This document shows, one piece after another, positions 1-63,124 of a stretch of 64,000 nucleotides of DNA. Every line of letters begins with the position of its first letter. Within the stretch, counting starts at the first letter, position 1. Made by a program: the position numbers and the translations under genes. Source of the stretch: Escherichia phage VTCCBPA_322. The DNA lies in sequence record PP989839.1; one strand, written 5' to 3'. The notes beneath the pieces were generated by a model. The model did not search any database. It was not told where the DNA came from and saw nothing but the letters and a program-made list of their open reading frames with translations.

Positions 1-1
1 C

Positions 2-268
2 GTTCTCAGAATCCTTACAGAATTCCTCAATACTTTTCTTACGCAGAGTCTCAGTCATAGCTGTTTCCTCTGCCAGTTTATTAACGAATGTATGCATTTC
101 TAATTTAGTACGAATGGCTTGTTTCTCTGCCATAGTACTTACATATGAATTAAGCATACCTACTGCTTTAGTTGCTGTACCGAATGTATCTGCAACAGTA
201 GTAGCAGCTGAGTTAACAGTACCAAGTAAAGTTCCTGCGGTCATACGTACAGTAGCTTGAGTAGTCAT
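2..268 (-). CDS. hypothetical protein, 3'-truncated at window edge
   Basis: ATG at 268-266 (MTTQATVRM...) with GGAG SD 8 nt upstream; frame stays open to coordinate 2 (...AMTETLRKKSIEEFCKDSEN). Absent from ORF track because it has no stop in the window. Confidence 0.4.
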   Translation of the reverse strand, partial: MTTQATVRMTAGTLLGTVNSAATTVADTFGTATKAVGMLNSYVSTMAEKQAIRTKLEMHTFVNKLAEETAMTETLRKKSIEEFCKDSEN

Positions 269-501
269 GATGATAGCTCCAATAGTTGATGATAGGACGA
301 CATGTCCATAACATGCGGAGCATGTGTAACGTGTAAGGTGGGGTAGGGTAGTGGCTACACCGTCAACATACCGGGGGGCTAGTTGAGTGTAAGGGTGTAG
401 CCCCAGCCACAACACTGTAGTCATACATAGCTATCACAATTTTGACATGCAAAAATATTATAGGCACTATCTCTATAAGCAGATAACTTTGAGGTATTAA
501 C

Positions 502-627
502 ATGAAAGATGGATGGGGTAACTACAATCCTACAGACCCTGAGAACTGGTTTCACTTTATTGCATGTGCCTGTGTCGCAGGATTCGTAGGTATTGTACTC
601 TTGCCACTGGTTCTACCTTACTTATAA
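502..627 (+). CDS. small hydrophobic peptide (41 aa, one predicted TM helix)
   Basis: ATG 502 with GAGGT SD 8 nt upstream, TAA 625-627; MKDGWGNYNPTDPENWFHFIACACVAGFVGIVLLPLVLPYL. Below the 60-aa track cutoff; followed by hairpin GGGGATA-TCTATC-TATCCCC (636-655). Confidence 0.25.
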   Translation: MKDGWGNYNPTDPENWFHFIACACVAGFVGIVLLPLVLPYL

Positions 628-790
628 ATACTATGGGGGATATCTATCTATCCCCTATTCATCATAGCGTTTGATACTTAAAACCTCACATAGCTTACCA
701 TTAACAAGCAATGGTCCACCTACTTCTACAAAAGCTAGGCTGTGTACTATCACTGGTTCAGGTAAGCCTTTGACTGTTACATACCACATA

Positions 791-1120
791 TTAATCCTTA
801 TAAGCAGTTAAATAGGAGGGAGCATACACCAAATGTGGAAAGTGAAGGGAATCACTCGTGGTGAAGGTAAGAGTGTACTTATCCGTATTCACATGCCAGG
901 GGGAATAAATATGGATAGGCCATGGTACTTCCTTTCCTGGTTCAAGAACTTCTACAATAACCCTCTTGTTTAGAATTAGTGTTAACCCTTTGACCTCATG
1001 AAGTGTTTGTTCATCCGGTACTAGGATAATAGGAGTAAGTCTACCAGGTACAAGGTCTTGCAAGATTGCATGGGTAGTGGGGTTAGGTCCACCAGCATAG
1101 CCTATCTTAGTAAGTTTCAT
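791..1120 (-). CDS. early-region paralog family protein (member 6 in transcription order)
   Basis: 109 aa; shares core motif with five neighbours (PIILVPDEQTLHEVKGLTLIL); overlaps upstream gene by 14 nt. Confidence 0.5.
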   Translation of the reverse strand: MKLTKIGYAGGPNPTTHAILQDLVPGRLTPIILVPDEQTLHEVKGLTLILNKRVIVEVLEPGKEVPWPIHIYSPWHVNTDKYTLTFTTSDSLHFPHLVYAPSYLTAYKD

Positions 1121-1454
1121 GAGATATAATCCTTACTCTTTTAAAATCTTTATTAGGTCTACCATCTATAGTAAGTCCAACGAATCCCTCGTCTATCCTT
1201 GGTTCAAAGAACAAGAATGCAGATTCACCAGCAGGTATCCATATGGATTCTCCTAGATTAAGGATGGTTATCTTAGCTGGGCTATTAAGTAGGAGGATGG
1301 AACCACGGGTACTATCTGCTAGCTCACCGAATAACATAAGCATATGACAGTCCTGCGGGAGTAACCACTCAATAGCTTTATTGATATTCTCGGAGTAAAC
1401 AGAGACTTCATCCTTATACTGATGAAGGTACATTACTCTATTCATATGGTGCAC
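1107..1454 (-). CDS. early-region paralog family protein
   Basis: 115 aa; divergent copy of family motif (HMLMLFGELADSTRGSILLL); overlapping tandem arrangement. Confidence 0.45.
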   Translation of the reverse strand: MHHMNRVMYLHQYKDEVSVYSENINKAIEWLLPQDCHMLMLFGELADSTRGSILLLNSPAKITILNLGESIWIPAGESAFLFFEPRIDEGFVGLTIDGRPNKDFKRVRIISHETY

Positions 1455-1765
1455 TCGTCGCTAGATAAATATGAGGTAGAAGGGTATAAGGTAATAAGTC
1501 TACCAGTTAGGGTAGTTACTACCATAGGTTCATTAGTGGATAGTATGTACACACTGGTGTGCTCTGGTATTTCTACGGAATCTTCCATCTTAATGAATTT
1601 GATAGGTTGCCCCAACATTAAGCAAGTACCAATGAACACTTCTGCTTCTTCACTTGGCTCATACAGGATAGTGGTAACTCTCCCCTTACCTGCCAGGATA
1701 TTATCCAGCGTATACGGGGATAGATAGCAAGTAGTAGCAAAGCTAATAAGGCAGTAAAGATGCAT
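1442..1765 (-). CDS. early-region paralog family protein
   Basis: 107 aa; family motif (TTILYEPSEEAEVFIGTCLML); AAGGAAG SD 7 nt upstream of ATG at 1765. Confidence 0.45.
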   Translation of the reverse strand: MHLYCLISFATTCYLSPYTLDNILAGKGRVTTILYEPSEEAEVFIGTCLMLGQPIKFIKMEDSVEIPEHTSVYILSTNEPMVVTTLTGRLITLYPSTSYLSSDECTI

Positions 1766-1768
1766 AGC

Positions 1769-2083
1769 TTACTTCCTTACATAGTAGTAATGGTATTCCT
1801 CATCCTCATAACGACTATCCCATTGGTAGTCATCTGATACCAACATAAAAGGTAGAGCATCATACGCACCACTATTGGTATAGACAGAAGGAGGAATGAT
1901 ACATACAACTTTACGGTCATTACCTGCTAAGAAGAGTTGACCCCTTACTTCATGATAATCCTCTAAGGTAGGAACCAGGATTACATGCTGAGGGTTGCTA
2001 TCTATGACTTCTTCTAAGGTGAAGTCCGTTGTGTATAAGGATTCCCCTTTAACAAAGCTGGGGGCGGTCAGTATGAATTTCAT
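1769..2083 (-). CDS. early-region paralog family protein
   Basis: 104 aa; motif HVILVPTLEDYHEVRGQLFL; AGGAAGGAAA SD upstream of ATG at 2083. Confidence 0.5.
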   Translation of the reverse strand: MKFILTAPSFVKGESLYTTDFTLEEVIDSNPQHVILVPTLEDYHEVRGQLFLAGNDRKVVCIIPPSVYTNSGAYDALPFMLVSDDYQWDSRYEDEEYHYYYVRK

Positions 2084-2447
2084 GATTGATTTTCCTTCCT
2101 TTGGGGATAGGTCTGAAGTAAATGGAAAGTGTTTTATTAAAGACGTTATGGTCAGCTATTAATTCCCAACCAGGTACTTTATAGAACCTAACTCCTGGGA
2201 AGAATATTTCAAAGCCTGCATACTCAGTAAGGTCATACACCACTGGTTCAGTGAGTATATGCGTATTGATTTGCAGGTTACTTAAAAAGAATGAGCCAAC
2301 TATCTTATGGGATTCTTCACAATCAGGTAAGAATACTACTTGCTTGTGTGTGATGAACTTACTTACTGCCTCTGGTTCTCCAAGGTAGTAGGGGTCTTGT
2401 CTACGTAGTACACCGGTAATATCAATATCGAAAGCGTAGATGCTCAT
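2049..2447 (-). CDS. early-region paralog family protein
   Basis: 132 aa; motif QVVFLPDCEESHKIVGSFFL; GGAGGT SD upstream of ATG at 2447; directly preceded by hairpin and T-run. Confidence 0.5.
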   Translation of the reverse strand: MSIYAFDIDITGVLRRQDPYYLGEPEAVSKFITHKQVVFLPDCEESHKIVGSFFLSNLQINTHILTEPVVYDLTEYAGFEIFFPGVRFYKVPGWELIADHNVFNKTLSIYFRPIPKGRKINHEIHTDRPQLC

Positions 2448-2460
2448 AATTACATACCTC

Positions 2461-2499
2461 CAGAAAAAGAAATGGGGTAGAGCCTCTCGACTCTACCCC
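2461..2499 (-). terminator. intrinsic terminator-like hairpin (9-bp stem GGGGTAGAG/CTCTACCCC) with T-run on - strand
   Basis: Stem 2474-2482 and 2491-2499, 8-nt loop; on - strand followed by ATTTCTTTTTCTG then the SD of the gene at 2447. Confidence 0.4.
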
Positions 2500-2647
2500 T
2501 TACCGTTTTCAATCACGGGTCAGTTCATCACCCTAGATACATGTGTATCGTTAGCCTACTAGGTAGGAAAGGAGCCGGGTAACCCTGACTGTAGAAGTTA
2601 TTAACTCTTTACGAGTACCGCCACTGTCTACTAGGCGGTATGACTAA

Positions 2648-2938
2648 TCACATCGTCACCATCATCCGAACACTGTCTTTACTTCGCCTGACGGAGACAC
2701 TATGAGGTAATTTTGTGAAGAACACAAGAGATGAAATAGACTTTTCTAAAGAGTAACTTTCTCTTGGTTCTAAGATCTTAATGCCTGGACGATTCTCTAA
2801 CAGCATCATCCCAGCTAATTCATGGTAGGAATCTTCATCATGTGTAATGATAATATCATCTGAAAGAATACCAGCCTTGGTATGGTCTAGCTCTTTGTAT
2901 TCATCTTTGGAGTCTTGGACTCTCATATAGATTCTCAA
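2648..2938 (-). CDS. early-region paralog family protein (first in transcription order)
   Basis: Motif DIIITHDEDSYHELAGMMLLEN matches family; TTG at 2938 has AAGGAG SD 6 nt upstream, first ATG at 2926. Confidence 0.45.
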   Translation of the reverse strand: MRIYMRVQDSKDEYKELDHTKAGILSDDIIITHDEDSYHELAGMMLLENRPGIKILEPRESYSLEKSISSLVFFTKLPHSVSVRRSKDSVRMMVTM

Positions 2939-2977
2939 AGGTTACTCCTTTTAGGAATAGGGTCATCGGAACATTAC

Positions 2978-2991
2978 ATACTATTTAGTAT
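2978..2991. promoter_or_regulatory. inverted repeat ATACTA-TT-TAGTAT in divergent intergenic region
   Basis: Near-perfect 14-bp palindrome 40 bp upstream of the - strand gene start at 2938; second hairpin GGGGT-ATCTC-ACCCC at 3048-3062 lies ~50 bp upstream of the + strand gene at 3110. Confidence 0.25.
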
Positions 2992-3109
2992 CATGAACTT
3001 TTTCTATATCATGACTAAAGTGTAACTGTATGGTATGGTTTCTTCAAGGGGTATCTCACCCCAAGAAAAGAATCTTCTTTAATAGACATAACTTTGTAGC
3101 GAGATAAGT

Positions 3110-3799
3110 ATGAGTGAACTAACTAAGCAGCAGATTGTTAATGCCCTACCTGCTAATTTCAAGAATAGTGTAACCCAGGAGTTGGTGGACACGATTAACA
3201 ACATTACCCAAGACCAACTGGTTGCTGAAGCATTCCGTGAAAACTTCATCTCTTACTCTGGAGTTATGAAGGAAGGTAAGTTTAAGACACAGGACTACAT
3301 GAATGCAGTTCAGTATGTGACTTACAAACATATGGGCTATTCAAATAAGGAAGCCTACTTCAAAACATTCCCTAACCGACAAGCAGAACTCGTAGCACGG
3401 GGAACCAGTGAGAAAGATATTAGTGCTTACGTGTCTGCTTACCACAGGGGTAAGTTAGTTAACCTCATCATGGAACAAAGTTTGGTTCCAGTGTGGATTG
3501 TGAACCAGGACAATTATCAGAAGGCAATCAATGTTCAGGTTGAACTGATGACTACAGCAGCAAGTGAGAAAGTAAGATGTGATGCAGCTAACTCTATCCT
3601 TACTCACTTGGCTAAACCGAAAGACCAGATAACAAATATTAACCTGGACCTGAGAGAGAACTCTGGGTTGACTGACCTCAAGGCAACACTTGCTGCATTA
3701 GCTGAGCAACAAATTAATGCAATCAATAGTGGTGTACCCACCAAAGAGGTTGCTGGTTCTAAACTAGTACGTGCAGATGAGGACATTACAGATGTCTGA
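3110..3799 (+). CDS. putative terminase small subunit
   Basis: 229 aa ORF immediately upstream of and overlapping the terminase large subunit gene; first gene of the + strand late block. Assignment is positional only. Confidence 0.4.
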   Translation: MSELTKQQIVNALPANFKNSVTQELVDTINNITQDQLVAEAFRENFISYSGVMKEGKFKTQDYMNAVQYVTYKHMGYSNKEAYFKTFPNRQAELVARGTSEKDISAYVSAYHRGKLVNLIMEQSLVPVWIVNQDNYQKAINVQVELMTTAASEKVRCDAANSILTHLAKPKDQITNINLDLRENSGLTDLKATLAALAEQQINAINSGVPTKEVAGSKLVRADEDITDV

Positions 3800-5381
3800 G
3801 TTAATTAAACAGGAACTAGATGAATGGCTAGACCAGGTGGATTACTCCCACCTTAACTCATCTAACTATGTTCCTAGTCAGTTTGCTCTTACCTTTGCCA
3901 ACTTTATTAAGTTGGTTAATGGCAAAGAGGGTGAATCCAACAAAACACCGCCAGTCCATTTGAAGATGTTGGATAAGATGATTAGCCCGAACCAGTATGT
4001 AGTTAACCTGTGTTTCCGTGGTGCAGGTAAGACTGCCGTGTTCATGGAATACTTTACCCTGTTCCTGGCAGTGTTTGGGCACTTACCAAGTCTGGGTAAG
4101 GTAGAAGGAATGATTTATGTATCTGACTCAATGGATAACGGTGCTAAGTCTGCACGTAAGAACATTGAGTTTCGTTACAAGAATAGTGAGTTCCTTCAGC
4201 AGTGGATACCTGAAGCTACCTTTACGGATAACCTATTAGAGTTCCGTAATGTAGAAGGACATCGACTGGGTGTTAAGCTGTTTGGTGCTAAGACAGGTCT
4301 TCGTGGTACGAAGATATATGGTAAACGTCCAACACTCTGTGTACTGGATGACTTGATTAGCGATGGGGATGCTAACTCCAAGACTAGCATGGAAGCTATT
4401 AAAGACACCGTTTATAAAGGCGTGAACCATGCTCTTGACCCAACACGTCGTAAAGTAATCTTCAATGGTACTCCCTTTAATAAGGAAGATATTATCATTG
4501 AAGCAGTTGAGTCTGGTGCATGGGATGTTAACGTATGGCCTGTATGTGAGAAGTTCCCTTGTAGCAGAGAAGAATTTCAGGGTGCATGGGATGACCGATT
4601 CTCTTACGACTACATCAAAGCCCAGTATGATATGGCAGTTAAGACGGGTAAGTTGGCTGGCTTCTATCAGGAACTTATGCTTCGTATTAGCTCTGAAGAT
4701 GAGAGACTGGTTCAGGATAGTGAGATTAAATGGTATAGCAGACAGCAGCTACTAAGGATGAAGTCCTGCTACAACTATTATATTACAACTGACTTTGCTA
4801 CTTCGGAGAAACAGACTAGTGACTACAGTGTCATTTCAGTTTGGGCTTATAGTTCTAATGGAGATTGGTTCTGGGTTGATGGTGTGGCTAATCGTCAGCT
4901 TATGGATAAAAACTTCGATGACTTGTTCCGTCTGGTTCAGGAATACCAACCACAAAACGTTGGTGTCGAAATTACAGGTCAGCAGGGTGGATTCATCTCC
5001 CTTCTTCAGAAAGAAATGATTAACCGTAATGTCTTCTTTAACTTTGCATCTTCTGAAGGTGGTAAGCCAGGCATACGTCCTGTAACCTCTAAGCTGTCAC
5101 GCTTTAACCTAGTAGTTCCATGGTTCAAAGCTGGTAAGATGTACTTCCCGGAAGAGTTGAGAGATACAACTATTATGGGTCTGTTCATGGGCCAGATAAA
5201 ACTGGCTACCATTAATGGAATCAAAGGTAAGGATGACTGTATTGATACTATCTCCATGCTGGGATATCTCAACCCTTGGAAACCACAAGCAGGTATGACT
5301 ATGGTGGATAACAAGGGTGACCCTATGTGGGATGATGAAGAAGAAGATAGTGTTAACCCTCTACGTTCATATATTGTGTGA
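3792..5381 (+). CDS. terminase large subunit
   Basis: Walker A-like CFRGAGKTAV, Walker B-like LCVLDDLISD, acidic C-terminal nuclease-like region; ATG 3792 overlaps upstream stop (ATGTCTGA); track start 3771 is GTG. Confidence 0.8.
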   Translation: MSELIKQELDEWLDQVDYSHLNSSNYVPSQFALTFANFIKLVNGKEGESNKTPPVHLKMLDKMISPNQYVVNLCFRGAGKTAVFMEYFTLFLAVFGHLPSLGKVEGMIYVSDSMDNGAKSARKNIEFRYKNSEFLQQWIPEATFTDNLLEFRNVEGHRLGVKLFGAKTGLRGTKIYGKRPTLCVLDDLISDGDANSKTSMEAIKDTVYKGVNHALDPTRRKVIFNGTPFNKEDIIIEAVESGAWDVNVWPVCEKFPCSREEFQGAWDDRFSYDYIKAQYDMAVKTGKLAGFYQELMLRISSEDERLVQDSEIKWYSRQQLLRMKSCYNYYITTDFATSEKQTSDYSVISVWAYSSNGDWFWVDGVANRQLMDKNFDDLFRLVQEYQPQNVGVEITGQQGGFISLLQKEMINRNVFFNFASSEGGKPGIRPVTSKLSRFNLVVPWFKAGKMYFPEELRDTTIMGLFMGQIKLATINGIKGKDDCIDTISMLGYLNPWKPQAGMTMVDNKGDPMWDDEEEDSVNPLRSYIV

Positions 5382-9235: not shown

Positions 9236-11533
9236 ATGAACGAAATGTTCTCGCAAGGTGGCAAAGGCTCCACTGGTATTCTTACCAATAAGCAAGCTAT
9301 TGCCCGTCATTTTGGTATTAAGCAATCCGAGGTTCTTTACTTCTCTGTTGGTGCTGTATTAGATGGTTATAAAGTCATTTATGACAAGTCCACTCAAAGG
9401 AGTTATTCCTTACCTGCTGGTATTCCATCTGGCACTACTGCTATTAGTCTAAGCACTGCTGCTGTACTTGTACACTCAGCAGGCAGTGAGGACTTAGGTA
9501 CTTTGGCTGCTACTCGTAAGGAATTTATAACTAAGCAGGAGAACTTTAATACAGGCTTTACTATTAGTACCCATAATGAGCAAGTAGTTACTCCTGGTGG
9601 GGTTTACTACTGGGCAGGGTCTTTACCTAAAGTTGTACCTCCTGGTTCCTCTATTGAGGAAACTGGTGGGGTGAATGCTACTGCATGGGTTAATTCATAC
9701 TCCAATGCTGTCTTATGTATTAAGGATTTGCTGACACATCCACAGGGTGGCACAGTTAGTGTGGTTGGTTACATTTCTGGTACGGACTTTGGTGGTGGTG
9801 ATTTTTACTGGGATGCTACTCGTCCACGTAGTAAACATAATGGTATTACAGTATTCAGTCCTACTGTTCCATTTAGTGGTTTATATACGGATATACCGAA
9901 TTTCCATGCTAAGGTTGGAGAGACTGCACCTGATGCCAATGGTTGTTGGGTGCGTAAGGACTGTGGTCGTAAAGTTCTAATGTCATGGGGTGGTGTAGAT
10001 ATTTCAGGCACTCAGCCAATGGATGCCGTAGTAACAAGTATGTGTACTTATGTGCATAATACTCGTCAGATTTTGGATGCTGATGAGAATGCTGTACTTA
10101 AGGCAGGGTTTACTACCGGTACTCAGACCAAAGATAAGCACAATGTGTTTACCCAAGCTTCTGTAATCTTAGAGGGTAAGTATGTCACCATTCGTGGTAA
10201 TGGGGCTAAGATTGATACATATCACCCTGTCCACAGAGAACGTTCTGTATTTGTTCTTCGTAATGGTGGGTATAACATTTCTGGTTTTAAATGGAATGAT
10301 GGGTACACTGACTTTAGTACTTCCCCTACGGATACCCAGCACAAACAAGGTGAATGGTGGATGGGTATTGTTGCAGATGGTGCAGTTACTTTAGTAGCTG
10401 ACCACCATGAAGTAACTGCTTCTCAGGTATTTGTACGAGCAGATGCATTTAATGCTACGGACTGGAATGAAAGAGTAACTGTACGGTATAGTAAGTTTGA
10501 CTACATTACTAACTACTGTTTCCTTAGTCGTAAGCTGAAACATTATGAGTTCAGCTACAATGAGGTTAAACACAATGGCCGTGAGTGGCATACTTATGGG
10601 GAAGCATGTGCTCCAACCACATACACCACACATACTATTATACGTAGTAATAACTTCTTCAATCAGATCGCAGAACAATCCTGTATTACTCCTGGGTCAT
10701 ACCATAAGTCCTGTCTGATTGTTAATAACCATTGTGAACGCTATCGAGGCATTTTCGTTGAGATTGGTTCTTCCAGTAATATCAGCATTCTGAATAACTA
10801 CTCTTATTCCAGTGGTGAAAGGGATAGTTCTCATATCCTACTTGTATCTGGTGGGGTAGATGACGAACCAGAGGGTGGTTTGAATAACTTGTTGATTAAC
10901 GGTAATGTGTTTGAGAGTGGACCGTATACGCTGCGGGAGTACAACACTGGTACTCCAGTTCGCAGAGGCATTACATTCTCTAATAACCACATTATTGATT
11001 GCCCTATGCCTAATATGGGTAATGCTGCTTACCACTCAATGGCATTTACCAATAACTACTGCCAGCCACCAGCAGACTTCCCGTATCTGGTATGGGCAGG
11101 TAAGAATCCAATTATTGAAGGCAATACTTTTGTTGGTGGGGTTATTCGTGCTAGAGATCTGGGTTATACCATTACTAACCCAATCATTCGTAATAACGTA
11201 TTCCGTGATGGTAGTACTGTTCAGACATTCCCTGCATTAATTGATATGACTGACTTTACCCGTTTAGTTGCTGAGGGTAACGATGTAACTAATGCTACCT
11301 TTACTCGTGTAATTGTTGATCCAGCCAACTGTACTTCGGTCGGGTTTAAACGTATTGGGCAGGCAGAGGGTTTTGAATCTAACCCAGCTACCTTGTATGG
11401 TGCTAAACTTACGGATGTAATTAATGGTGATATTGTGATGAACAATAACCCAGGTAATGCTGAAGGTGGTTACGCATGGGTATGCGTAAATTCTGGTTCT
11501 AAACAATTTGGTAAAATTGTCGTAGCTGTGTAA
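9236..11533 (+). CDS. tailspike-like protein with predicted right-handed beta-helix (possible polysaccharide depolymerase)
   Basis: 765 aa; recurring N-N/G-N-x-F/I rungs (IRSNNFFNQ, LINGNVFESG, ITFSNNHIID, IIEGNTFVGG, IRNNVFRDG, AEGNDVTNATF) typical of pectate-lyase-like beta-helices. Confidence 0.55.
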   Translation: MNEMFSQGGKGSTGILTNKQAIARHFGIKQSEVLYFSVGAVLDGYKVIYDKSTQRSYSLPAGIPSGTTAISLSTAAVLVHSAGSEDLGTLAATRKEFITKQENFNTGFTISTHNEQVVTPGGVYYWAGSLPKVVPPGSSIEETGGVNATAWVNSYSNAVLCIKDLLTHPQGGTVSVVGYISGTDFGGGDFYWDATRPRSKHNGITVFSPTVPFSGLYTDIPNFHAKVGETAPDANGCWVRKDCGRKVLMSWGGVDISGTQPMDAVVTSMCTYVHNTRQILDADENAVLKAGFTTGTQTKDKHNVFTQASVILEGKYVTIRGNGAKIDTYHPVHRERSVFVLRNGGYNISGFKWNDGYTDFSTSPTDTQHKQGEWWMGIVADGAVTLVADHHEVTASQVFVRADAFNATDWNERVTVRYSKFDYITNYCFLSRKLKHYEFSYNEVKHNGREWHTYGEACAPTTYTTHTIIRSNNFFNQIAEQSCITPGSYHKSCLIVNNHCERYRGIFVEIGSSSNISILNNYSYSSGERDSSHILLVSGGVDDEPEGGLNNLLINGNVFESGPYTLREYNTGTPVRRGITFSNNHIIDCPMPNMGNAAYHSMAFTNNYCQPPADFPYLVWAGKNPIIEGNTFVGGVIRARDLGYTITNPIIRNNVFRDGSTVQTFPALIDMTDFTRLVAEGNDVTNATFTRVIVDPANCTSVGFKRIGQAEGFESNPATLYGAKLTDVINGDIVMNNNPGNAEGGYAWVCVNSGSKQFGKIVVAV

Positions 11534-12032: not shown

Positions 12033-12188
12033 CTAACTCGGTTGGGGGAAAGGTAGCAGTTCTGGTGGGATCTCTGAGATGTTATTAGCAGAAACTATTC
12101 GTTCCCCATAACTTCCCACGACCAACAATCCTCCCTTCATTTTGCATACAACATCCTTACCACTTTGGAAAATATCTTTAATAGACAT
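12033..12188 (-). CDS. small hypothetical protein
   Basis: ATG 12188 with GAGGT SD; MSIKDIFQSGKDVVCKMKGG...; upstream of the 126-aa gene on the same strand. Confidence 0.25.
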   Translation of the reverse strand: MSIKDIFQSGKDVVCKMKGGLLVVGSYGERIVSANNISEIPPELLPFPQPS

Positions 12189-12312
12189 AGTTACCTCGCA
12201 GTCGATACCAGACACTATGTCTGGATGTATTCCATCATACTAAGTATTATCTAAGAGTCATCTTATGATACGACCCTATTGGGGTTCCTAACTTTACAAC
12301 TACGGTAATATT

Positions 12313-12642
12313 ATGAATGAATCGGGTGAACTGCTTCTAGTCAGACTGGAGGAACGATTGAAGACTCTGTTTGAGAACCAGACAAGGGACAGGCAGGACC
12401 GTGAGAAACTGGAGGAAACTCTGGGAGAACTACGGGATTCAATCAATGACATAGGCAATAGACTAAAGAATGTGGAGGATAGCTTAGCTAAGAATGAACC
12501 TACTATTGAAGAGTTCATCACCATTAAGCATAAGGTCGTTGGTGCCGGAATTTTTGGTAAGTGGGTATGGGCTGGGGCAGGTGCAATTATCGGGGTACTG
12601 GCTGCTGCAAGACGGGAGATATTCGCATGGTTCGCAGGCTAA
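12313..12642 (+). CDS. lysis-cassette membrane protein (coiled-coil N-terminus, C-terminal TM helix; holin or antiholin candidate)
   Basis: 109 aa; charged heptad-like N-terminal region then VVGAGIFGKWVWAGAGAIIGVLAAA; first gene of the lysis cluster. Confidence 0.4.
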   Translation: MNESGELLLVRLEERLKTLFENQTRDRQDREKLEETLGELRDSINDIGNRLKNVEDSLAKNEPTIEEFITIKHKVVGAGIFGKWVWAGAGAIIGVLAAARREIFAWFAG

Positions 12643-25857: not shown

Positions 25858-25895
25858 TTCCTATATACGATATAAGTTTGAACAGGAAACATGCT

Positions 25896-28800
25896 ATGTC
25901 AACATTTGACCGTCTGGCAGGTTTCGCAGACAGCATCACTAATGCCAAGCAAGTCGATGTCTCTACTGCAACCTCTCAGAAGCAAGCTGCACAAGGGCAA
26001 AGCCCTTTCCAATTAACCCCAGAGAATGCTTACAATCTCCAAACTGGTCGTGTAGGTAATCTTGGAATCGGTGCATTCGAACCAGGTTCACTTCAGGCAG
26101 ATTTCACTCAAGCCTCTCCATTAGAAATTCTTAATAAATACGGTAATGAGCAAGGTCTACAGATTCTTAATAGCCGAGCTAATGCTGCTGATGTTGTACG
26201 TCAGGACTTATCTAAGCAACGTACTAACGCAGAAGCATTTGGTGATACTCTTTCTGGTGTTGGTCTTGGTGTTGCTAATACCCTTGGGGGCATTGCTGCT
26301 CTTGGCACAGGTCTGGTCAATGATAATGCCGGGGCATCCATTGCTTCCGGGATGGATTGGTTGAATGAAGGTGTACACAATCTACAGTCTGATGCACTGA
26401 ATGCTACCCGTAAGGTTGTTCAGAATCAGAACCTGATTTCTGCACAAAAGAACCAGAAACTTTATGAAGAAGACATTAAGAATGGGGAGAGCAGTTTGGT
26501 TGCCTCCTTGTCTCGCATTGGTCGTGACGCTTTTGATTCCGTTGCTAATACACTTGATAATGGTATGGCTGCCACCGATGGACTGAGTGAAGGTGTTGGT
26601 TCCCTCTTTACTGGTGGTCCACTTATCCGTGGTGTATCTGCACTTGGTAAAGTAATGGTAGGTGGTGATAAAGCTATTAAAGGTATTACCTTAGCTGCTG
26701 AGTTAGGTTCACGCCCTGCACAGGTTGCATTGTCTGCTGGTCGTGTTGCTGCACCTGCTATAGCAATTGGTGGTATGGAAGCTGGTGGTGCATACCAACA
26801 GACTGCTTCTGAAATCATGAAGATGTCCCATCAAGAATTAGCAAGTAAGTCTCCTGTTTATCAACAACATATTGCTGATGGTTTATCCCCTGATGAAGCT
26901 CGTCGTCAGACTGCATCTGAAACAGGTATCGTTGCTGCTGGCTTAACTGCTCCGGTTGCTGCTGCTACTGGTCCACTGGTATCCAAATTTGAACTCAACC
27001 CCCTTAAAGTAGGTTCACTGGCTGGTGCTGGCTCTAACATGCTACGTGAGACTGTAGAAGAAGGTATCCAGTCCGGTACTAGTCAGTTTGCACAGAACAA
27101 AGCAATTCAGGGTAATGTAGATGCTAAGCGTGATTTGCTTAAAGGTGTCGGTGAACAAGCAGGTCTTGGTGCACTTTATGGCTTCGGTAGTGCTGGTGTT
27201 GCTCAGGCTCCAGGTGCAACTGTTAAAGCTGTTGGTGCTTCTGCTGGGCCTGCTTTACGTACTACTCTGGCTGGTGCTTCTCTGGTTGGTAGTGCATTAG
27301 CAAAAGCTGCCTCTCCTATTACTAACATCCTGGTTCAACGTGGGGAAGAAGTTGCTAAGCGTAATGAACAAGCATCTCCTGTATCAGACGCTACAGTTAA
27401 CGCTGCTGCACAAGAAGCTACTGCTCAGGCAGAACAAGCACAAGCAACTGTACAGGAAGCAGTAGATGCAATGGATATTTCTCCTGAAGAGAAAGCTGCT
27501 GCTACTCAGTATGCTGCTGACTTAACTCAGGCAATGAAGTTTGACCCAGTAGAGTTAGAGCAAGCTAATCCAGCAATCCGTGAAGCTGTTTCTGGTTCCA
27601 CTAACCGTGTAGAAGCTATTCAGAAGATGGCTGACCTGGTTAATACTGCTGAAGACCCTAACGTTCAAATGGAAGCTGCAATCCAGATGTATGACAACAT
27701 CATGTCTATGGATAGCTTCATTAATCGTGACCCGGGTGCTTTGGCTAATCTGGAACAGGGTTCTCCTGCTGCTAATATTGTTGACCAGTTCTCCGGTCTG
27801 ATGGCTAACGTACAGAATACTCCAAAGGTACTTCGTGCATTCCGTGCCATCCATTCTATGATTCAGGAACAGGCTGAAGCAGGTAAGTTAAAAGCTACTG
27901 AAGAAGCTAATCAAGCCCAAGCAAACAACATTGCTATGGCTGCTGATATGTCTCCAGAAGTATTGGATGCAGATTCAGTGAACATGGTTCTGAAACATGC
28001 AAGTGAAGGTAAGATTACACTGGGTAATCGTCAGCGTGCTGCCTTGCAATCTGCTGCTGCTTTATTACAAGGAGCACGGGAATTTGACGCTAAAGCAGAA
28101 GAACTGGGCTTACGTCCTCAGGACATTGTTAGTAAACAGATTAAAACCGACGAATCTCGTTCTAATGAAGGTCAGTACTCTGCGTTGCAACATGCTAAAC
28201 GCATTCGTTCTGCGTACAACTCTGGTAACTTCGATTTGGCTTCCGCTTATCTCGACGACTTTATGAAGTTCGCCCAGCACATGCAGAATAAGGTCGGAGC
28301 GTTGAATGAGCATCTGATTTCTGGGAATGCGGATAAGAATAAGTCTGTCCATTATCAGGCTCTTACTCCCTCCCGTGAATGGGTACGTAGTCGTACTGGC
28401 CTCGGTGTCAATCCGTATGATACCAAGTCGGTTAAGTTTGCCCAGCAAGTAGGACTGGAGGCCAAAACCGTAGCTGATATTGCTAATGCACTTGCTACGG
28501 CTTACCCGGAGCTTAATGTTTCTCATGTGAAGGTTACCCCATTAGATTCACGTCTGGACAAGCCTGCTGCCCAGGTGGTTAAAGAGTTCCGTCAGGGCAA
28601 TCTTGACGCTGCTCAATCCCAACAGACCAATGAACCAGTGAATCAGGTTGATAAATCTCCTGCACCTGTGCAAGAGGCCACTACTACTGTACAGCCTAAA
28701 GCTAAACTAGTGGTAGAAAATAAGACTGTTCCTGTTAAGGAGACTAGTTCAAAAGCAGAAGAAGTCTCTACTACCGAATCCGAAAGGGATGCTTATGTGA

Positions 28801-31800
28801 AAGAAAATACTATTTCACAGGACATCCTCAATAAGAGCGGTGATCGTAGAGAGAGTCCTTGGCTCTTTGCTGATGGTACTGTTGTTGGTTCTAACGGCGA
28901 TCACATTAGCCTGTCCGATGTATTTGGTCACGATGGCTATCGTGATATGTCTTTGGATACTGGTGCTGTACGTTCTACTTTCTATAAAGGCAGTGAGCAA
29001 CCATTCGTATCTTTGCAACTTTTTGATAATCAGAAGCTAACTACTGAACAATTCAATACTGTTCAATCATTCGTAGAAGCAAACAATGCACTGATTCAGA
29101 TTGGTGTAGATACGTCTGGGCGTAACACCAATAACGTTGAGAAGATAGAAGTATCACTGGCCCAACTGAAAGCAGACTATACCGTTGGTGGTAAACCCCT
29201 GTCTGAGATGGAAACAGTGTTCCCTGTCTATAACAATGACAAGACACCGAACCAGTTCCTGAAAGCATTTACCCTGCCGGAAGAACCTAAGTCTCGCACC
29301 ATTGGTTCTGAATCCCCTTTGACTGATGTTAAGCAAGCACTGTCTTCTGCTGCTCGCTTTGAAGCATTCACTCAAAAAGAAAATAACGCTCTCACAAGTG
29401 ATGTGATTAAGCGTTATCAGGACTTAATGGACTTTGGTGAAACTCTGAAGACTACTTTGTCTGACCGTCTGACTAAGTTTCTTGCTAATAAGAATGTTGG
29501 TAAACGTTTTGCAGAAGGTACTGAGGCTAACCGTTGGGTAGGTGGTAAGTTACTTAACATCGTAGAGAAAGATGGGGATACCTTTAAGTTCAATGACCAG
29601 TTGTTAGAGACTGCTGTACTTGCTGGTCTGCAATGGCGACTTACTGCTACACAAAATGCTGCTGTTAAAGATATGAAAGACGTAGCTGCTATTACTGGAG
29701 TAGAAGCATCCTTGTTACCTGAAGGTATCCTGGCTGAATTTGAGAATGCTCAGACTCTGGTTGAAGCTACTAACTCACTGGCTCAAAAGATTGAATCTTA
29801 CTGGGGTCTGAATCGTAATCCTAATGCACCTCTGGGTTATACCAAAGGTATCCCAATGGCAATGGCTACAGAGATTCTGTCTTCTTTCATTGAGATGGGT
29901 GAAGTTAAAGAATCTATGCTGGATGTGTCTGAGTTTGACCCAGCTTCTAATAAGACTGTTGGTCTGTATACTATTGAGAAACTGGATGATAATGATGCCA
30001 TTAACAAATTCCCTACTGCTATTGAGGAAGCTGTCCTCGTAGAACCAGAAGAGAAAATGTACTTTGGTGATGATATTCCTTCCGTGGCTCAAACACAGTT
30101 ACGTAATCCTGCTGTTAAGAATACCCCAGAGCAGAAAGCTGCTCTTAAAGCAGAACAGGCTACCGAGTTCCGTGTACACATGCCTATGGTTAACTTCTAT
30201 GAAGCATTAGGTCGTGACAACATTCTGGAACTGATGGGTGCTGGTACTCTTAATCCTGAACTGCTGAACGTGAATACTGCTAAATCATTGGAAGGTAAAA
30301 ACCTGTCCGTGTCCATGGCATATGATTCCTTGTTTGGTGTAATCAATCAATTACAGGAACAGGAGAATGGTCTGGATACGCCTATTCACTATGGTTACAA
30401 CATGACCCGTGTAGGTCGTATGCAGATGCTTGGTAAGAACAACCCACAATCCAGCAAGCTGGTTCGTGAAGCAATTCTGCCAACCTTCTCTACTATTGAC
30501 TTAAGTAATGAAAATAGCCAAACGTTCTCTGACTTCCAGTTAGGTCTGGCTCAGGCATTGGGCATCAAGGTTCATAATATGTCCCGTGAAGCTATGTCTG
30601 AAAAACTGACCAAAGCTCTGGAAGGTAATTTGAAACCTGCTGTTGATATGATGGTTGAGTTTGATAAGTCCGGTCACTTACCTGCTGATGCAGTAGATAT
30701 TCTGAAGACATCTCTGGGTGGTGATAAATCATTCGTAGCTCTTATGGCTCTTATGGAATATGCCCGTTACCTTAACAGTACTGACCGTGCTAACTTTAAT
30801 ACCCCACTGTACGTTGAAGCCGATGGTGTAACCAACGGGCCAATCAATGCAATGGTATTAATGACCGGTGGTAAGTTCACTTCGGATTGGATTAAGAATA
30901 CTGCTAAAGGTGGTTTGTTCTTCGGTAAAGCTGGTAAGACTATGAACGAACACCGTTCACAGGATGACAGTGTTGACTTGTATGAAGCATCTACTAATGG
31001 TCTGCAACAAGCACTAAATGAGTTACGTACTACTTACCGTAATAATGTTCCGGTCATGAACCAGATGAATCATCTTCAGAAGTTAATGGACCTGTTCATT
31101 AAAGACTTTAACCTGAACGAAGACGGTACTTTGGACCTGAAACGTGGTATCGCTAAAAACCCACTGACTATTACCATCTATGGTTCTGGTGCTCGTGGTA
31201 TTGCTGGCAAGATGGTTAGTGCAATTACTGACACCATCTATGAACGCTTCAGTGATGTTCTGCAAGCTCGTGCTGCTGACCCTAGCATTTCCCCAGCTAT
31301 GGCAATGTTTGGTAAGGAGGCTGCGTCTGAGGCTAATGCTCAGGCTATGCTGGATACTTTCCTTACATCTATGGAAGCACTGACTGGTAATGTTCCAGTT
31401 ATGCGTAAAGGTCAACTGTCTATTCAACAGGTAGAAGGTGCTCTGACTGGTAAGTTAGACCCACAGAAATTTACTGTATCTGGTAATGCCCTGAAGAACT
31501 TACAAGAGAACATGCTTCACCTGTTCGTTGAACCAATGCGTACTGGTATCCGTAATACTGTTGGTGAAGGTCTTATGCATTCTACTGAGAACTTGCAGAA
31601 GGCTACCCAGATTCAGTCTTTGGTTCTGCAAGACATGTTCCAACAAGCAGTACAGGCTAAGCTGGCAGAAAAAGAAAAAGACCCAACATGGAAGAAGGGT
31701 GATTTCTTAACACAGAAAGAACTTAATGAAATCCAGGAATCATTATCTCCACTGGCTCCAATGATTGAGACTGGTTCACAGACTTTCTACATTGCTGGTA

Positions 31801-34800
31801 GTGAGAATACTGACGTTGCTAACCAAGTTCTGGCTACCAACTTAGATGATCGTATGCGTGTGCCAATGAGCATCTATGCTCCTTCACAGGCAGGCGTTGC
31901 AGGTATTCCATTTATGACCATTGGTACTGGCGATGGCATGATGATGCAGACCCTTTCTACTATGAAAGGTGCTCCGAAGAATACCCTGAAAATCTTTGAT
32001 GGTATGAACATTGGTATCGACAACATCACTGATGCAAGTCGTAAAGCTAACGAGGCTGTATACACTTCCTGGCAGGGTAACCCTATCAAGAATGTCTACG
32101 ACTCCTTCTCTAAGTTCATGAAGAATGTAGACTTCAGCAAACTGTCTGATGAAACCAAACAGGCTATCGCTAAATCTGCTCTGGAATATGACCAGCGTGA
32201 AGGTGCTACCGATGACCTGTTACGTGTTGGTGCTGAACAGATTGAACGTAATCTGCGCAACATTGCTCTGGGTGTGGATATTCGCCACAAAGTAATGAAC
32301 CAGGTACAGACTACTGTTGACCAGATGGCTGCTGTAGGTGCTCCTTATGTGAACAACGGTAAAATCTCTCTGGAAGGTCTGACTGTAGACCAGCAAGTAG
32401 CTAAGCTGAACGAACTGTTTGATGCTGAGTTAAACAAGCGTCGTGATGCAGTACGTGCTGCTAAAGCAGAACCAGTGAAAGAAGTACCAGCAATGGAACA
32501 GGTTGGTCGTGTACTGAAGTCTGGTGTACGTCTGCTGTCTAATACTGCTATCTCTAAGCTGGCTAAAGAGATGTCTCCGGAACAGCAAGCGGTACTGAAA
32601 GAAGTACAGAAATCCCTTGCTGCTAAAGACTACAAAGTTGTTTATGGTACTCCTGCTCAATTAGATGCTTATGCTATTGAGAAGAATATTACTCGCCCAG
32701 CACCAGAAGATATTGAAGCTGCTGAAGCAGGTAATGCATACGGCTGGACTAACTTTGATGATAAGACTATCTACTTAGTTACCCCTTCCTTGGAGACTCT
32801 GGTTCATGAATTGGTACATGCTTCTACTTTCGAATCTGTACTGGCTCATTATGAAGGTACTCCAAATGAAGCAGTCCAAAATATTGAAGACTTAATGAAT
32901 CAGTTCCGTACTCTGGATGTTAAGGATGAATCTCCGGCAGTACGCGAAGCATATGCAGATGCTCTTAATACCATTAATGGTCATTTGTCTAATGGCTTCA
33001 TTGAACCAGCAATGGCTAAAGCTGCTGCACTTAACGAGTACATGGCATGGGGTTTAACTAACCGTGAACTAATTAGCAAGCAGAAGAAAACTACTGCACT
33101 GAAGACTATGGTTCAGGCTGTGTATGAAGCAATCAAGCGTCTGGTATTCGGACGTAAGAAAGCTCCCGCTAATGCAGATGATATGTTCTCTGGTTTACTA
33201 TTTAACTCTGCTGTAGTTATGCGAGGACAAGCTCCTACTGCTGCTGTAGCCAAGGATACTACTCTGTTCCATAACAAAGCATACGGTGACAATACTCGTC
33301 TGGAAGAGCTAGGGAAAACCTTCGATAAACTGATTACAGACTACATTGGTTCAGAACCAGTACAACAAGTAATTCGTAAGGGTAAATTCTCTGATGCAGT
33401 AGTGAATGCAACTAAAGTAACCCGTGATGTTCAGGCTCATGGCTTCACTATGAATATGCAGGAACAGCGTCTATTCACTAACATCGTTGCTGCTCTGGCT
33501 ACTGAAGCTGCCATTAGTCCTGCTGCCCTGGCTCGTGCACAGGAATACTATACGCATGTTACTAAGAACCTGACCGTTGAATCGTTCATGGCTGACCCGG
33601 ATAGTACTAACCCTGCTGACCGTTACTATGCTCAACAGAAGTTCGATACCATTATGGGTGCTAACAATATTGAGTTTGATGCACAGGGCCGTTCTTCCTT
33701 ACTGCCTACCTTTGTTGGTCTGGCAATGGTAAGTGAAGAGGTACGTAAAGTACTGGCAGACATTCCTGTTATGAAAGCAGATAAGCAATCCGGTAATACA
33801 GTTGATGCAATGCTGACTAACATTGGTACTGCTGCAATGGCTAGTCTGAATGCTCGTGTAGCGGGTGATACTAAGGCTACCAATGTACAGGAAGGTATGG
33901 ATGCACTGGCTCAGACAATCATGCAGACGAGTCTCAATGCACAGTCCTTCTATGATTCCGTTGCTACTCCTAGTGGTAATGCTATTGACCGTGCTAACCA
34001 GTATCTGGTGGATTCTATTGATGCATTGTCTACCCGTGCTTTAGAAGGTGCTCGTGAAGTTGCAGCTAATACCAAGAACCCGTTGGTTAAAGGTGCTGCT
34101 CATGCTGCACAACTAATAGCTGCTATTGCTACAGAGAAGAATGGTGAAATCGTAGCTGAAGGCGTTATGGCTGCAATGAACCAGGGTAAAGTGTGGCAAC
34201 CTTTCCATGACCTGGTTAATGACTTAACAGGCCGTACTAAGAGCAATGCTTCTGTATACGATTTGATTAAGGCAGTACGTGCACAGGTACAAGCTGACCG
34301 TCAACAGTTCCGTGAACATTTGCCTACCACTATCGCATCTAAGTTCAGCCGTAAGCTGACTAATGATGAATGGAAAGCAATGCATACTGGTATGGGTAAA
34401 ACTGACTTAGCTGTTTTACGTGACACTATGTCTCTGGCTGAAATTCGTGACTTGCTGACTGACCAAAAGATTGTTGACCGTGAAGTGAATAAGCTGGAAG
34501 CAGACTTACAGAAACAAGCTGGTCGTAACTGGCCTCTGATTAGCCGTAAATCTAAGCAACTAGCTCAGTACATGATTAACGGTACAGTTGGTAATAACCT
34601 GCTGCGTAATGCTACAGCAATCTCTCGTATGCTGGGTGAACGTCAGGCTGCACGTTCTACTGTAGATGTAGCTCAACTGGATAAACTGATTACTCTGTAT
34701 GCACTGGAAGCAATGAGTAAGACTGACCGTGAGATGTTATCTTCACTGGCTCAATCAGAAGTTGATGGAATTGATTTTGCTACTTCTTACCTGGTTGGTC

Positions 34801-58145: not shown

Positions 58146-58588
58146 TAGAATGACCTTAGATAGTTGGTAATACCACTACGGTTTTCTGTAATTTTCTTAA
58201 CCTGAACGTATACCAGTTTAAACTCACTACGAGGTAGTTCCTGTAATACTGCTATACCTTCAGTAAGAGCCACAGAACACGCTACAGCGGTTTCTTTTTT
58301 AAAGGAGTACAAGTCTTCGTACATGATGGCTTCATACTCCCTGCGGAGCATACAGAGAGCATCTCTTGCCTTATCACTTACTTCTTGTGAACCAGCAGAC
58401 ATAGCTAAACTGTATATGATAAAGACTTGTTCAAAAACAAAGTCCAATAATCTATCAGGATTGTTAGTCCCCATGAATAATTTTGTTGTGTAGGAACGAG
58501 CTTTACGGTTGAGTTCGTACTCATTCTCTATACCTTTATTATAAAGAACCGGATTTCGTTCCCTTTTCCGTAGGAATGGGATACGCAT
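58145..58588 (-). CDS. hypothetical protein
   Basis: 147 aa; ATGA-type coupling with downstream thyX. Confidence 0.4.
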   Translation of the reverse strand: MRIPFLRKRERNPVLYNKGIENEYELNRKARSYTTKLFMGTNNPDRLLDFVFEQVFIIYSLAMSAGSQEVSDKARDALCMLRREYEAIMYEDLYSFKKETAVACSVALTEGIAVLQELPRSEFKLVYVQVKKITENRSGITNYLRSF

Positions 58589-62405: not shown

Positions 62406-62732
62406 TTAAGATTTAATACAAGGGTATGCTGTATCAATTGCCAGCAGAACCATGTCTGATGGTACTTTTACTGCATTAACCTTTCGGTCGTACAGAATAA
62501 TAGTGGCTACTTTGTCAAAGACATTTCCTAACTTTAAACTATCTGGTACGCAGTTTTTGCCTGCTTCTACACCCATAGTAACCATGCCCATGAAGTAACC
62601 TTGGTTCACAAAGCTATCATTCCCGGCCTTATAAGCAGCAGCAGCTTCCAATAAGGTTTCACGGCTGGATGCTTGAGCATTGAATGACAGAGCTGATAAA
62701 GCTACTACAGCAACAGCAATTAAAGTTTTCAT
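62406..62732 (-). CDS. small secreted (periplasmic) protein
   Basis: 108 aa; signal-peptide-like MKTLIAVAVVALSALSFNAQA; two Cys in the mature part. Confidence 0.45.
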   Translation of the reverse strand: MKTLIAVAVVALSALSFNAQASSRETLLEAAAAYKAGNDSFVNQGYFMGMVTMGVEAGKNCVPDSLKLGNVFDKVATIILYDRKVNAVKVPSDMVLLAIDTAYPCIKS

Positions 62733-62918: not shown

Positions 62919-63124
62919 AGGTAATATCCTTCCAGGTTTATTGGTGTTACAAATGTACTAGCTGATAGACAGAAAGACTTACCAGTTTCTACAGCAACAG
63001 CAGCAGGCTTACCATCGGGTAAGTGAATCTTTAAACATACTGACTGGTTATATATAAAACCACAGGCAGGTTGCACATCACCGAAGGTCACTTCATTGCT
63101 TTCAGAACGATTCGTTACTTTCAT
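62915..63124 (-). CDS. small hypothetical protein
   Basis: 69 aa; ATGA-type overlaps both sides. Confidence 0.35.
   Translation of the reverse strand: MKVTNRSESNEVTFGDVQPACGFIYNQSVCLKIHLPDGKPAAVAVETGKSFCLSASTFVTPINLEGYYL

Follow-up and report, generated by a model that had tools for sequence, protein, structure and literature searches.

We analyzed a 64-kb window (the whole stretch of 64,000 nucleotides presented here, out of a genome of ~72 kb) of Escherichia phage VTCCBPA_322 and report on positions 2440-3110, where the terminase genes meet small genes on the opposite strand. The window belongs to a G7C-like (Gamaleyavirus) N4-type phage, given in the orientation opposite to the N4 convention, and its first 6 kb showed 88-97% DNA identity to G7C-like coliphages (Gamaleyavirus, Enquatrovirinae). 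Our results make it highly probable that the interval is the conserved divergent junction between the homologs of N4 gp69 and gp70, near the right end of the genome, and not a terminus. The junction is largely the ordinary, already known layout of N4, with the termini elsewhere. In addition, the interval apparently contains an undescribed conserved RNA structure. With moderate confidence, we regard this element (2464-2639) as a previously undescribed family of structured regulatory RNA shared by N4, the G7C-like phages, and the N4-like phages of Klebsiella, which would serve either as a small RNA (sRNA) whose CUCCU targets Shine-Dalgarno sequences or as an attenuator gating an expandable array of gp71-family genes.

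The architecture of the window was that of an N4-like phage (Schitoviridae, Enquatrovirinae, Gamaleyavirus). The giant virion RNA polymerase (vRNAP) typical of these phages is encoded by a 3576-aa open reading frame (ORF) at 25878-36608 (+). The late arm runs rightward from gp69 and the large terminase gene (TerL), and the opposed middle/early arm occupies the minus strand from ~37 kb on. At the junction, the gp69 homolog, a putative small terminase gene (TerS), was found at 3110-3799 (+) with a match to phrog_2109 (E 3e-105) and a weak match to a TerS phrog; the gene is annotated as TerS in UE-S5a and Moo19. It is followed by TerL, the N4 gp68 homolog, at 3771-5381 (+; Terminase_6C). Facing them on the minus strand, the N4 gp70 homolog of 92 aa, a protein of unknown function, extends over 2648-2926 (ATG at 2926; phrog_7213, E 6e-41) and has the same length, 279 nt, as gp70 of G7C. 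An earlier sequence-only reading had correctly noticed that the terminase genes face small ORFs on the opposite strand. However, it had taken 2440-3110 to be free of ORFs, which the presence of gp70 contradicts, and had called the minus-strand ORFs early-type, when they form the N4 gp70-72 right-end cluster and not an early region. In N4 (NC_008720), gp69 points leftward and is followed by gp70, gp71, and gp72 pointing rightward, after which the record ends. The head-to-head gp69-gp70 junction was syntenic in N4, G7C, PhAPEC7, Mimir124, UE-S5a, Moo19, and Klebsiella N4-like phages. Because N4 has the identical layout, the junction is archetypal and no artefact of assembly.

The two genes are separated by a spacer of 183 bp (2927-3109), a divergent control region in which promoters leading leftward into gp70 and rightward into gp69 are presumed. 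The spacer was nearly invariant in nine Gamaleyaviruses whose gp70/gp71 coding sequences differ by 15-35%, and its right half (3015-3109) was recognizably kept in N4, Moo19, and the Klebsiella phages. The conserved sequences in this half are a GGGGT..ACCCC hairpin with its flanks and a TAGAcATAAyTTTGTAG block right before the gp69 start. Throughout the interval, the non-coding parts were conserved to a degree equal to or above that of the terminase genes. The hairpin (3048-3062, +), flanked by TTCTTCAA and AAGAAAAGAATC, lies 48 nt upstream of the gp69 ATG and is kept as far as N4. It is real, as the earlier reading had proposed, and modest in energy (z -1.65 on the plus strand and -2.59 on the minus strand). 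The 14-bp palindrome reported at 2978-2991 is likewise present, but as an inverted repeat of the 6+2+6 type (ATACTA-tt-TAGTAT) and not as a perfect 14-bp palindrome. Its stability was negligible (z -0.84), its size is expected by chance in 670 bp, and its left arm is missing in N4 and the Klebsiella relatives; it offers a TAGTAT -10-like hexamer on both strands. The synteny of the junction, the near-invariance of the spacer among the nine Gamaleyaviruses, and its partial retention as far as N4 support one of the two options offered earlier, a true divergent promoter region.

We also considered the spacer motifs as a promoter signature recurring upstream of other genes, and this was rejected: two isolated repeats were found and no family. 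An exact 15-mer (TCTTTAATAGACATA) occurs upstream of gp69 at 3076-3090 and again at 12175-12189, in a second divergent gap upstream of a plus-strand ORF starting at 12313. An 18-mer (GTAACTGTAYGGTATRGT) is present in the spacer at 3022-3039 and inside the ORF at 9236-11533 (10475-10492). These two-copy repeats could be late-promoter-associated motifs.

The structured RNA element occupies 176 nt (2464-2639) on the minus strand, in the spacer between gp70 and the first gp71-family gene, and is supported by a covariance model, covariation, and fold energy. It starts 9 nt past the gp70 stop codon. In the direction of gp70, it consists of helix H1 (2617-2639), H2, a multi-stem domain (2519-2590) enclosing the hairpins 2555-2567 and 2536-2549, H5, and a last helix followed by a U-run. 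This last helix (stem 2499..2474) has 11 pairs, 7 of them G-C, with a z of -4.4, and the U-run (ATTTCTTTTT) extends over 2464-2473. A U-run that comes after a GC-rich stem-loop, both on the transcribed (minus) strand, is the structure of an intrinsic terminator. The hairpin with T-run seen earlier at 2461-2499 is thus genuine, but its stem has 11 bp instead of 9, at 2474-2499, and its U-run belongs to the minus strand. The terminator stem covaries in the distant Gamaleyavirus L024, in N4, and in the Klebsiella phages, and the annotation of PhAPEC7 also places a terminator here. A few nucleotides separate its end from the ribosome-binding site that serves the first gp71-family paralog.

The gap of ~200 nt between gp70 and the first gp71-family paralog was as conserved as the terminase genes and accepted 1-nt indels and a 50-nt insertion in relatives; because it tolerates these, it is non-coding. 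A plus-strand ORF at 2440-2562, annotated by PHANOTATE in Mimir124, was rejected as coding, since it overlaps the terminator and relatives carry the 1-nt indels and the 50-nt insertion. When the gp70-sense RNA was folded and compared with shuffled sequences, a z of -3.46 was obtained. In an alignment made by MAFFT only, from 15 Gamaleyavirus-group sequences (A5), both partners had changed in seven pairs, a number reached by none of 500 shuffles. A covariance model built from the Gamaleyavirus group alone (R1) recovered the element in full length and at the corresponding locus in N4 (40.6 bits) and in five Klebsiella-type phages (43-47 bits). It also matched every metagenomic gp70 locus with enough flank, bringing the set to 35 sequences in all. 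In the alignment of these 35 (A9), 98.9% of the cells were paired and 33 of the 47 pairs showed compensatory changes; the covariation score was 0.349, compared with at most 0.071 in slid controls. The same helices were recovered by RNAalifold from an earlier, model-fitted alignment of 20 sequences (A7), and N4 folded by itself contained H1, H2, the outer and inner stems, and the terminator. Furthermore, G-U pairs were found in 78 cells and A-C in 5 cells on the gp70-sense strand, an excess that favors an RNA of the gp70-sense strand over a DNA cruciform. Compensatory changes, stability above that of shuffled sequences, and G-U strand asymmetry, the general marks of a conserved RNA, were thus all found. 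A search of window positions 1-4000 against Rfam 15 at E<=1 yielded no family for the element; the sole match, to mir-279 at 2966-3044, was due to chance (21 bits, the gathering score being 56). We found no publication describing an RNA at the gp70-gp71 locus. A pattern search for the H1 motif in IMG/VR added one further member, the other matches being unrelated.

Several features of the element and its surroundings are recorded here. The single-stranded junction of the multi-stem domain (2566-2574; minus-sense GGCUCCUUU) contains CUCC(U) in all lineages, including N4 (L003, ~2950) and Klebsiella phage L014, the complement of AGGAG, the Shine-Dalgarno sequence found at gp71 and in mRNAs generally. 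In two lineages, the H2 loop has received insertions of 35-50 nt (L024 1811-1862; L028 ~1795-1830), which appear to form hairpins themselves; the H2 loop is tolerant to insertion. Upstream of the element, the last ~30 codons of gp70 (2648-2740) are near-invariant in DNA across the Gamaleyaviruses, including L024, while drift is seen in the first two thirds. The cause of this invariance may be the most conserved motif of the protein (FFTKLPHSVS) or a signal that overlaps the gene ahead of the RNA element.

From these observations, we propose the following scheme. The spacer is the only possible start of the late arm, and the late promoters of N4 are weak sigma-70-like sites activated by N4SSB; for these two reasons, we infer a late promoter in the spacer. 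It would be the first late promoter, from which host sigma-70 RNA polymerase together with N4SSB would transcribe rightward into gp69, TerL, and the remaining late arm. A leftward promoter for gp70 would also lie in the spacer. Transcripts of gp70 would enter the structured element, and the majority would stop at the terminator, leaving either a structured 3' end that is stable or an sRNA derived from the 3'UTR; the gp71-family array and gp72 would be supplied by read-through. The putative function of the element is that of a 3'UTR-derived sRNA or an attenuator.

A number of points weigh against these interpretations. A sigma-70 scan of 2927-3109 gave no match of at least 9/12, and the promoters there are putative. 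By eye, weak -35/-10 candidates can be picked out (TAGAAA-17-TAGTAT on the minus strand and ATGACT-18-TATGGT on the plus strand, with TACAAT in N4 and the Klebsiella phages), and the candidate -10 elements are poorly conserved between genera. Because no 9/12 hexamer pair was found and the -10 candidates are not conserved across genera, no fixed promoter coordinates are given. No published description of the transcription timing or class of gp70-72 was found, and the transcription of the RNA element is deduced from its position and strand. The covariation across genera relies on alignments fitted to the model: sequence-only MAFFT across genera recovered H1 and part of the terminator only and left the middle of the element unaligned, which is why the covariance-model alignment was needed. 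Moreover, the sequences represent about five or six independent lineages. Finally, the termini of the phage in the window, described below, are placed by homology to relatives alone.

In all lineages, the terminator directly adjoins the gp71 ribosome-binding site. For this reason, a serious alternative is that the structured element is a cis-acting leader, similar to an attenuator or riboswitch, that controls read-through into or translation of the gp71 array, and not a stable 3' end or a trans-acting sRNA. The conserved single-stranded CUCC(U), with its complementarity to AGGAG, would suit such a leader, and by eye GUUACCC has the 5' arm of the terminator as a possible alternative partner. 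However, a conserved antiterminator pairing is conjectural, no ligand or factor is known, and the start of the element 9 nt after the gp70 stop codon is that of a 3'UTR. We hold this alternative to be possible, with perhaps one chance in three at best, and retain the terminated, structured 3' end of gp70 transcripts as the working scheme.

A further explanation is that the conserved blocks 2464-2647 and 2944-3109 act as DNA, either as a signal for terminase recognition and packaging or as a replication origin. Phages with direct terminal repeats (DTR) of the T7 type have packaging signals near the right end. The blocks adjoin the terminase genes, lie at most ~2.5 kb from the right end, and are conserved like core genes, and N4 makes functional use of DNA hairpins. 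Conversely, the G-U pairs frequent in the gp70 sense (78 cells) would turn into A-C mismatches if the opposite strand were the one that folds, the converse occurring in 5 cells, and the element ends in every lineage with a canonical terminator and a U-run in the sense orientation. In addition, the element lies ~2 kb from the actual cleavage sites. This explanation is improbable, and the conservation of 2464-2639 is better accounted for by a structured RNA.

The hairpin with a 3-nt loop at 2555-2567 (CCTAC-TAG-GTAGG on the plus strand) had been missed by the earlier reading, which stated that no hairpin in the interval resembled the N4 vRNAP promoter with its 3-nt loop. The statement holds in that 2440-3110 contains no consensus vRNAP promoter: the only 3-nt-loop hairpins there (2555-2567 and 2910-2922) lack the heptamer. 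It fails in that the hairpin at 2555-2567 is a perfect one of 13 nt with a 3-nt loop. This hairpin might be taken for a promoter of the vRNAP or RNAPII type that serves the gp71 array, since its 5-bp stem is perfect and covaries (CCAAC/GTTGG in phiG17, CCTGA/TCAGG in L024), the template-strand loop in the G7C subgroup is GGA as in vRNAP promoters, and the middle promoters of LUZ7 are hairpins. However, it has neither the GCGGAGC heptamer nor the TTATGGA initiation region, its loop is not conserved (TAG, GGA, TGG, or 4 nt), and the whole hairpin is missing in N4. Transcription initiated at the hairpin would run into the terminator after ~50 nt, and the hairpin is nested in a larger covarying RNA domain. 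These results make a promoter role very unlikely.

By contrast, a vRNAP-type early promoter was found outside the interval. According to published rules, such promoters have a GC-rich heptamer centered at -11, an inverted repeat of 5-7 bp, and a 3-nt loop with a central purine (PMC4496689). The window contains two vRNAP heptamers, and only one is flanked by an inverted repeat. This site, P1 (312-324, minus-strand promoter), is formed by the hairpin CATGC-GGA-GCATG on the plus (template) strand, with the heptamer GCGGAGC at 315-321 (center 318), and is preceded by TCCATAA on the plus strand. With the loop center at -11, the predicted +1 lies near 307, leading leftward into the gp1 homolog (ATG at 268). 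The other heptamer, at 58343, lies within an ORF without a flanking inverted repeat and was rejected as a chance match. P1 is located within the direct terminal repeat described next.

The termini were located by comparison with relatives whose ends are mapped or recorded. The ends of G7C were reportedly confirmed by Sanger run-off, and Mimir124 has a 401-bp DTR by PhageTerm whose left end agrees with the Sanger run-off end of G7C (PMC11640937). In our alignments, position 1 of the G7C genome corresponded to window 409, and the right end of the Mimir124 annotation "DTR (short)" to window 10. For IME11, read starts pile up at 62722 (dominant) and 62713 (minor), with reverse starts at 63122-63124 (PMC3896407). 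IME11 has the same orientation as the window, and its positions minus 62712 give window positions by alignment, which places the pile-ups at window 10 (major), 1 (minor), and 409-411. The UE-S5a record has identical 401-bp ends equivalent to window 10-409, base 1 of the Bp4 record is window 1 and its ends are identical over 411 bp, and the left end of N4 aligns to ~window 408. The ends of N4 were reportedly determined classically. Because the ends of the relatives fall at window 1/10 and 409-411, the right-end copy of a ~400-bp direct terminal repeat is predicted to be window 1-411, with its outer end at 1 or 10 and its inner boundary, the left-end sequence of the genome, at 409-411. The physical right end most likely coincides with the start of the window or lies no more than 10 nt from it. 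We searched the 64-kb window for another copy of positions 1-409 and found none; the other end falls beyond 64 kb. Window 1 is the minor right-end site of IME11 and also the first base of the records of Bp4 and Uz-1, and window 10 is the major IME11 site and the record end of Mimir124, UE-S5a, PBM, and 24-32N. Ends at both positions fit the micro-heterogeneity known for the right end of N4. A perfect 9-bp inverted repeat (353-361/394-402; GGCTACACC/GGTGTAGCC) was also observed at most 60 bp from the left genome end, partly kept in G7C.

No relative has a terminus in 2440-3110, the mapped ends being ~2 kb away. Accordingly, the proposal that physical ends lie in this interval or in the gap 269-790 fails for the former and succeeds for the latter, which holds the inner boundary of the repeat at 409-411, and a circularized assembly is not required, as the physical right end appears to be where the window begins. 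A physical end, or the circularization joint of a collapsed terminal repeat, inside 2440-3110 is very unlikely and is contradicted by homology: late genes do adjoin opposite-strand genes there, and several public records are cut at window 3080-3109 (for example, nithesis, Bas96, AN24P2, and NAN33P5), but these merely begin at the small terminase gene and run unbroken through the repeat region elsewhere, the ends of N4, G7C, IME11, Mimir124, UE-S5a, and Bp4 all lie at window 1/10 and 409-411, and 56 records align collinearly across the interval at 88-97% identity and without a breakpoint. AlfredRasser and phi1_146050 are also linearized just ahead of the small-terminase start, like the four records above. 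Genomes linearized at window 3080-3109 can mimic a terminus in database comparisons.

The remaining homologs of N4 genes at the right end are on the minus strand. The N-terminal 89 aa of a gp1 homolog (1-268; phrog_5020, E 4e-38), aligning to gp1 of G7C and N4, are truncated by the start of the window, which is the outer end of the repeat. The N4 gp72 homolog, of 44 aa, lies at 655-789 (phrog_19797, E 2e-30), so that the second gap once described as ORF-free (269-790) also contains a gene. Between gp72 and the RNA element, five gp71-family paralogs were found at 791-1120, 1107-1445/1454, 1442-1765, 1769-2083, and 2049-2447. They share the motif ILxPDxExxHxxxGxxLLxN with N4 gp70 and gp71 and cross-match among PHROGs. 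The view of the opposite-strand array (791-2447) as paralogs is thereby upheld, and gp70, by the same motif, is a distant member of this family. The number of gp71-family paralogs varies among close relatives, with three in G7C, five in the window and in Mimir124, and six or seven in PhAPEC7. Searches of all small ORFs against Pfam gave no matches, and those against PHROGs gave only families of unknown function. N4 is a classical model phage, and to our knowledge neither a function nor a transcription class has been described for its right-end genes gp70-72.

A terminator-like hairpin (GGGGATAGATAGATATCCCC, 655..636, minus strand) overlaps the stop codon of the gp72 homolog and would close the right-end operon ahead of the terminal repeat. 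The unique sequence that separates the repeat from gp72 contains a sigma-70-like site (ATCACA-17-TATTAT) at 433-461. A small ORF at 502-627 (+) encodes 41 aa with a hydrophobic C-terminal half, is preceded by a GAGG ribosome-binding site, and had no PHROG match. The segment 433-627 has no counterpart in G7C.

For annotation, these results place the genome ends, by homology, at window 1/10 and 409-411, identify the sole early (vRNAP) promoter in the window, and show that the terminase-proximal junction, the arbitrary start of many public records, is not an end. The covarying RNA between gp70 and gp71, absent from Rfam and present in every lineage examined, offers a lead into the regulation of the gp70-72 cluster and possibly into phage-encoded regulatory RNA in the Schitoviridae.

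Finally, we compared the window with known systems. Putative sRNAs, short non-coding transcripts, and leaky terminators have been described in LUZ7, an N4-like Pseudomonas phage (PMC9163698). Like the LUZ7 sRNAs and other small RNAs that derive from 3'UTRs or end at terminators, the window element is non-coding, structured, terminator-ended, and ~180 nt long, and it occurs in an N4-like phage. However, the LUZ7 candidates lie in another intergenic region and were defined by reads, whereas the window element was defined by conservation and is likened to them by description. Compared with the right end of N4, gene order and orientations matched, but N4 has a single gp71 where the window has five gp71-family paralogs. 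The divergent spacer of N4 (~160-180 bp) also contains the GGGGT..ACCCC hairpin and the AAGAAAAGAATC block, and the window has the 6+2+6 inverted repeat in addition. In N4 and the Klebsiella phages, gp70 and gp71 are likewise separated by ~200 nt, and a terminator immediately precedes the gp71 ribosome-binding site. In the multi-stem domain, N4 and the window differ in their inner hairpins.

The terminal repeats of the Gamaleyaviruses G7C, IME11, Mimir124, UE-S5a, and Bp4 and of N4 measure 390-440 bp and have a unique left end and a heterogeneous right end. Window 1(10)-409(411) aligned with them end to end at 92-98% identity, including the major and minor right-end sites of IME11, 9 nt apart; the G7C record annotates a longer region of 1160 bp that "contains terminal repeat". 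P1 of the window occupies the same position and distance from the left end as P1 of N4 (90-102) and G7C (89-101), from which it differs by two stem base pairs swapped compensatorily. It shows the features of the N4 early promoters P1-P3, namely the heptamer, a stem of 5 bp, the loop GGA, and the initiation region TTATGGA, and it conforms to the consensus of N4 P1 and P2 and G7C P1-P3 on the non-template strand, NNNGC-TCC-GCNNN-TTATGGA.

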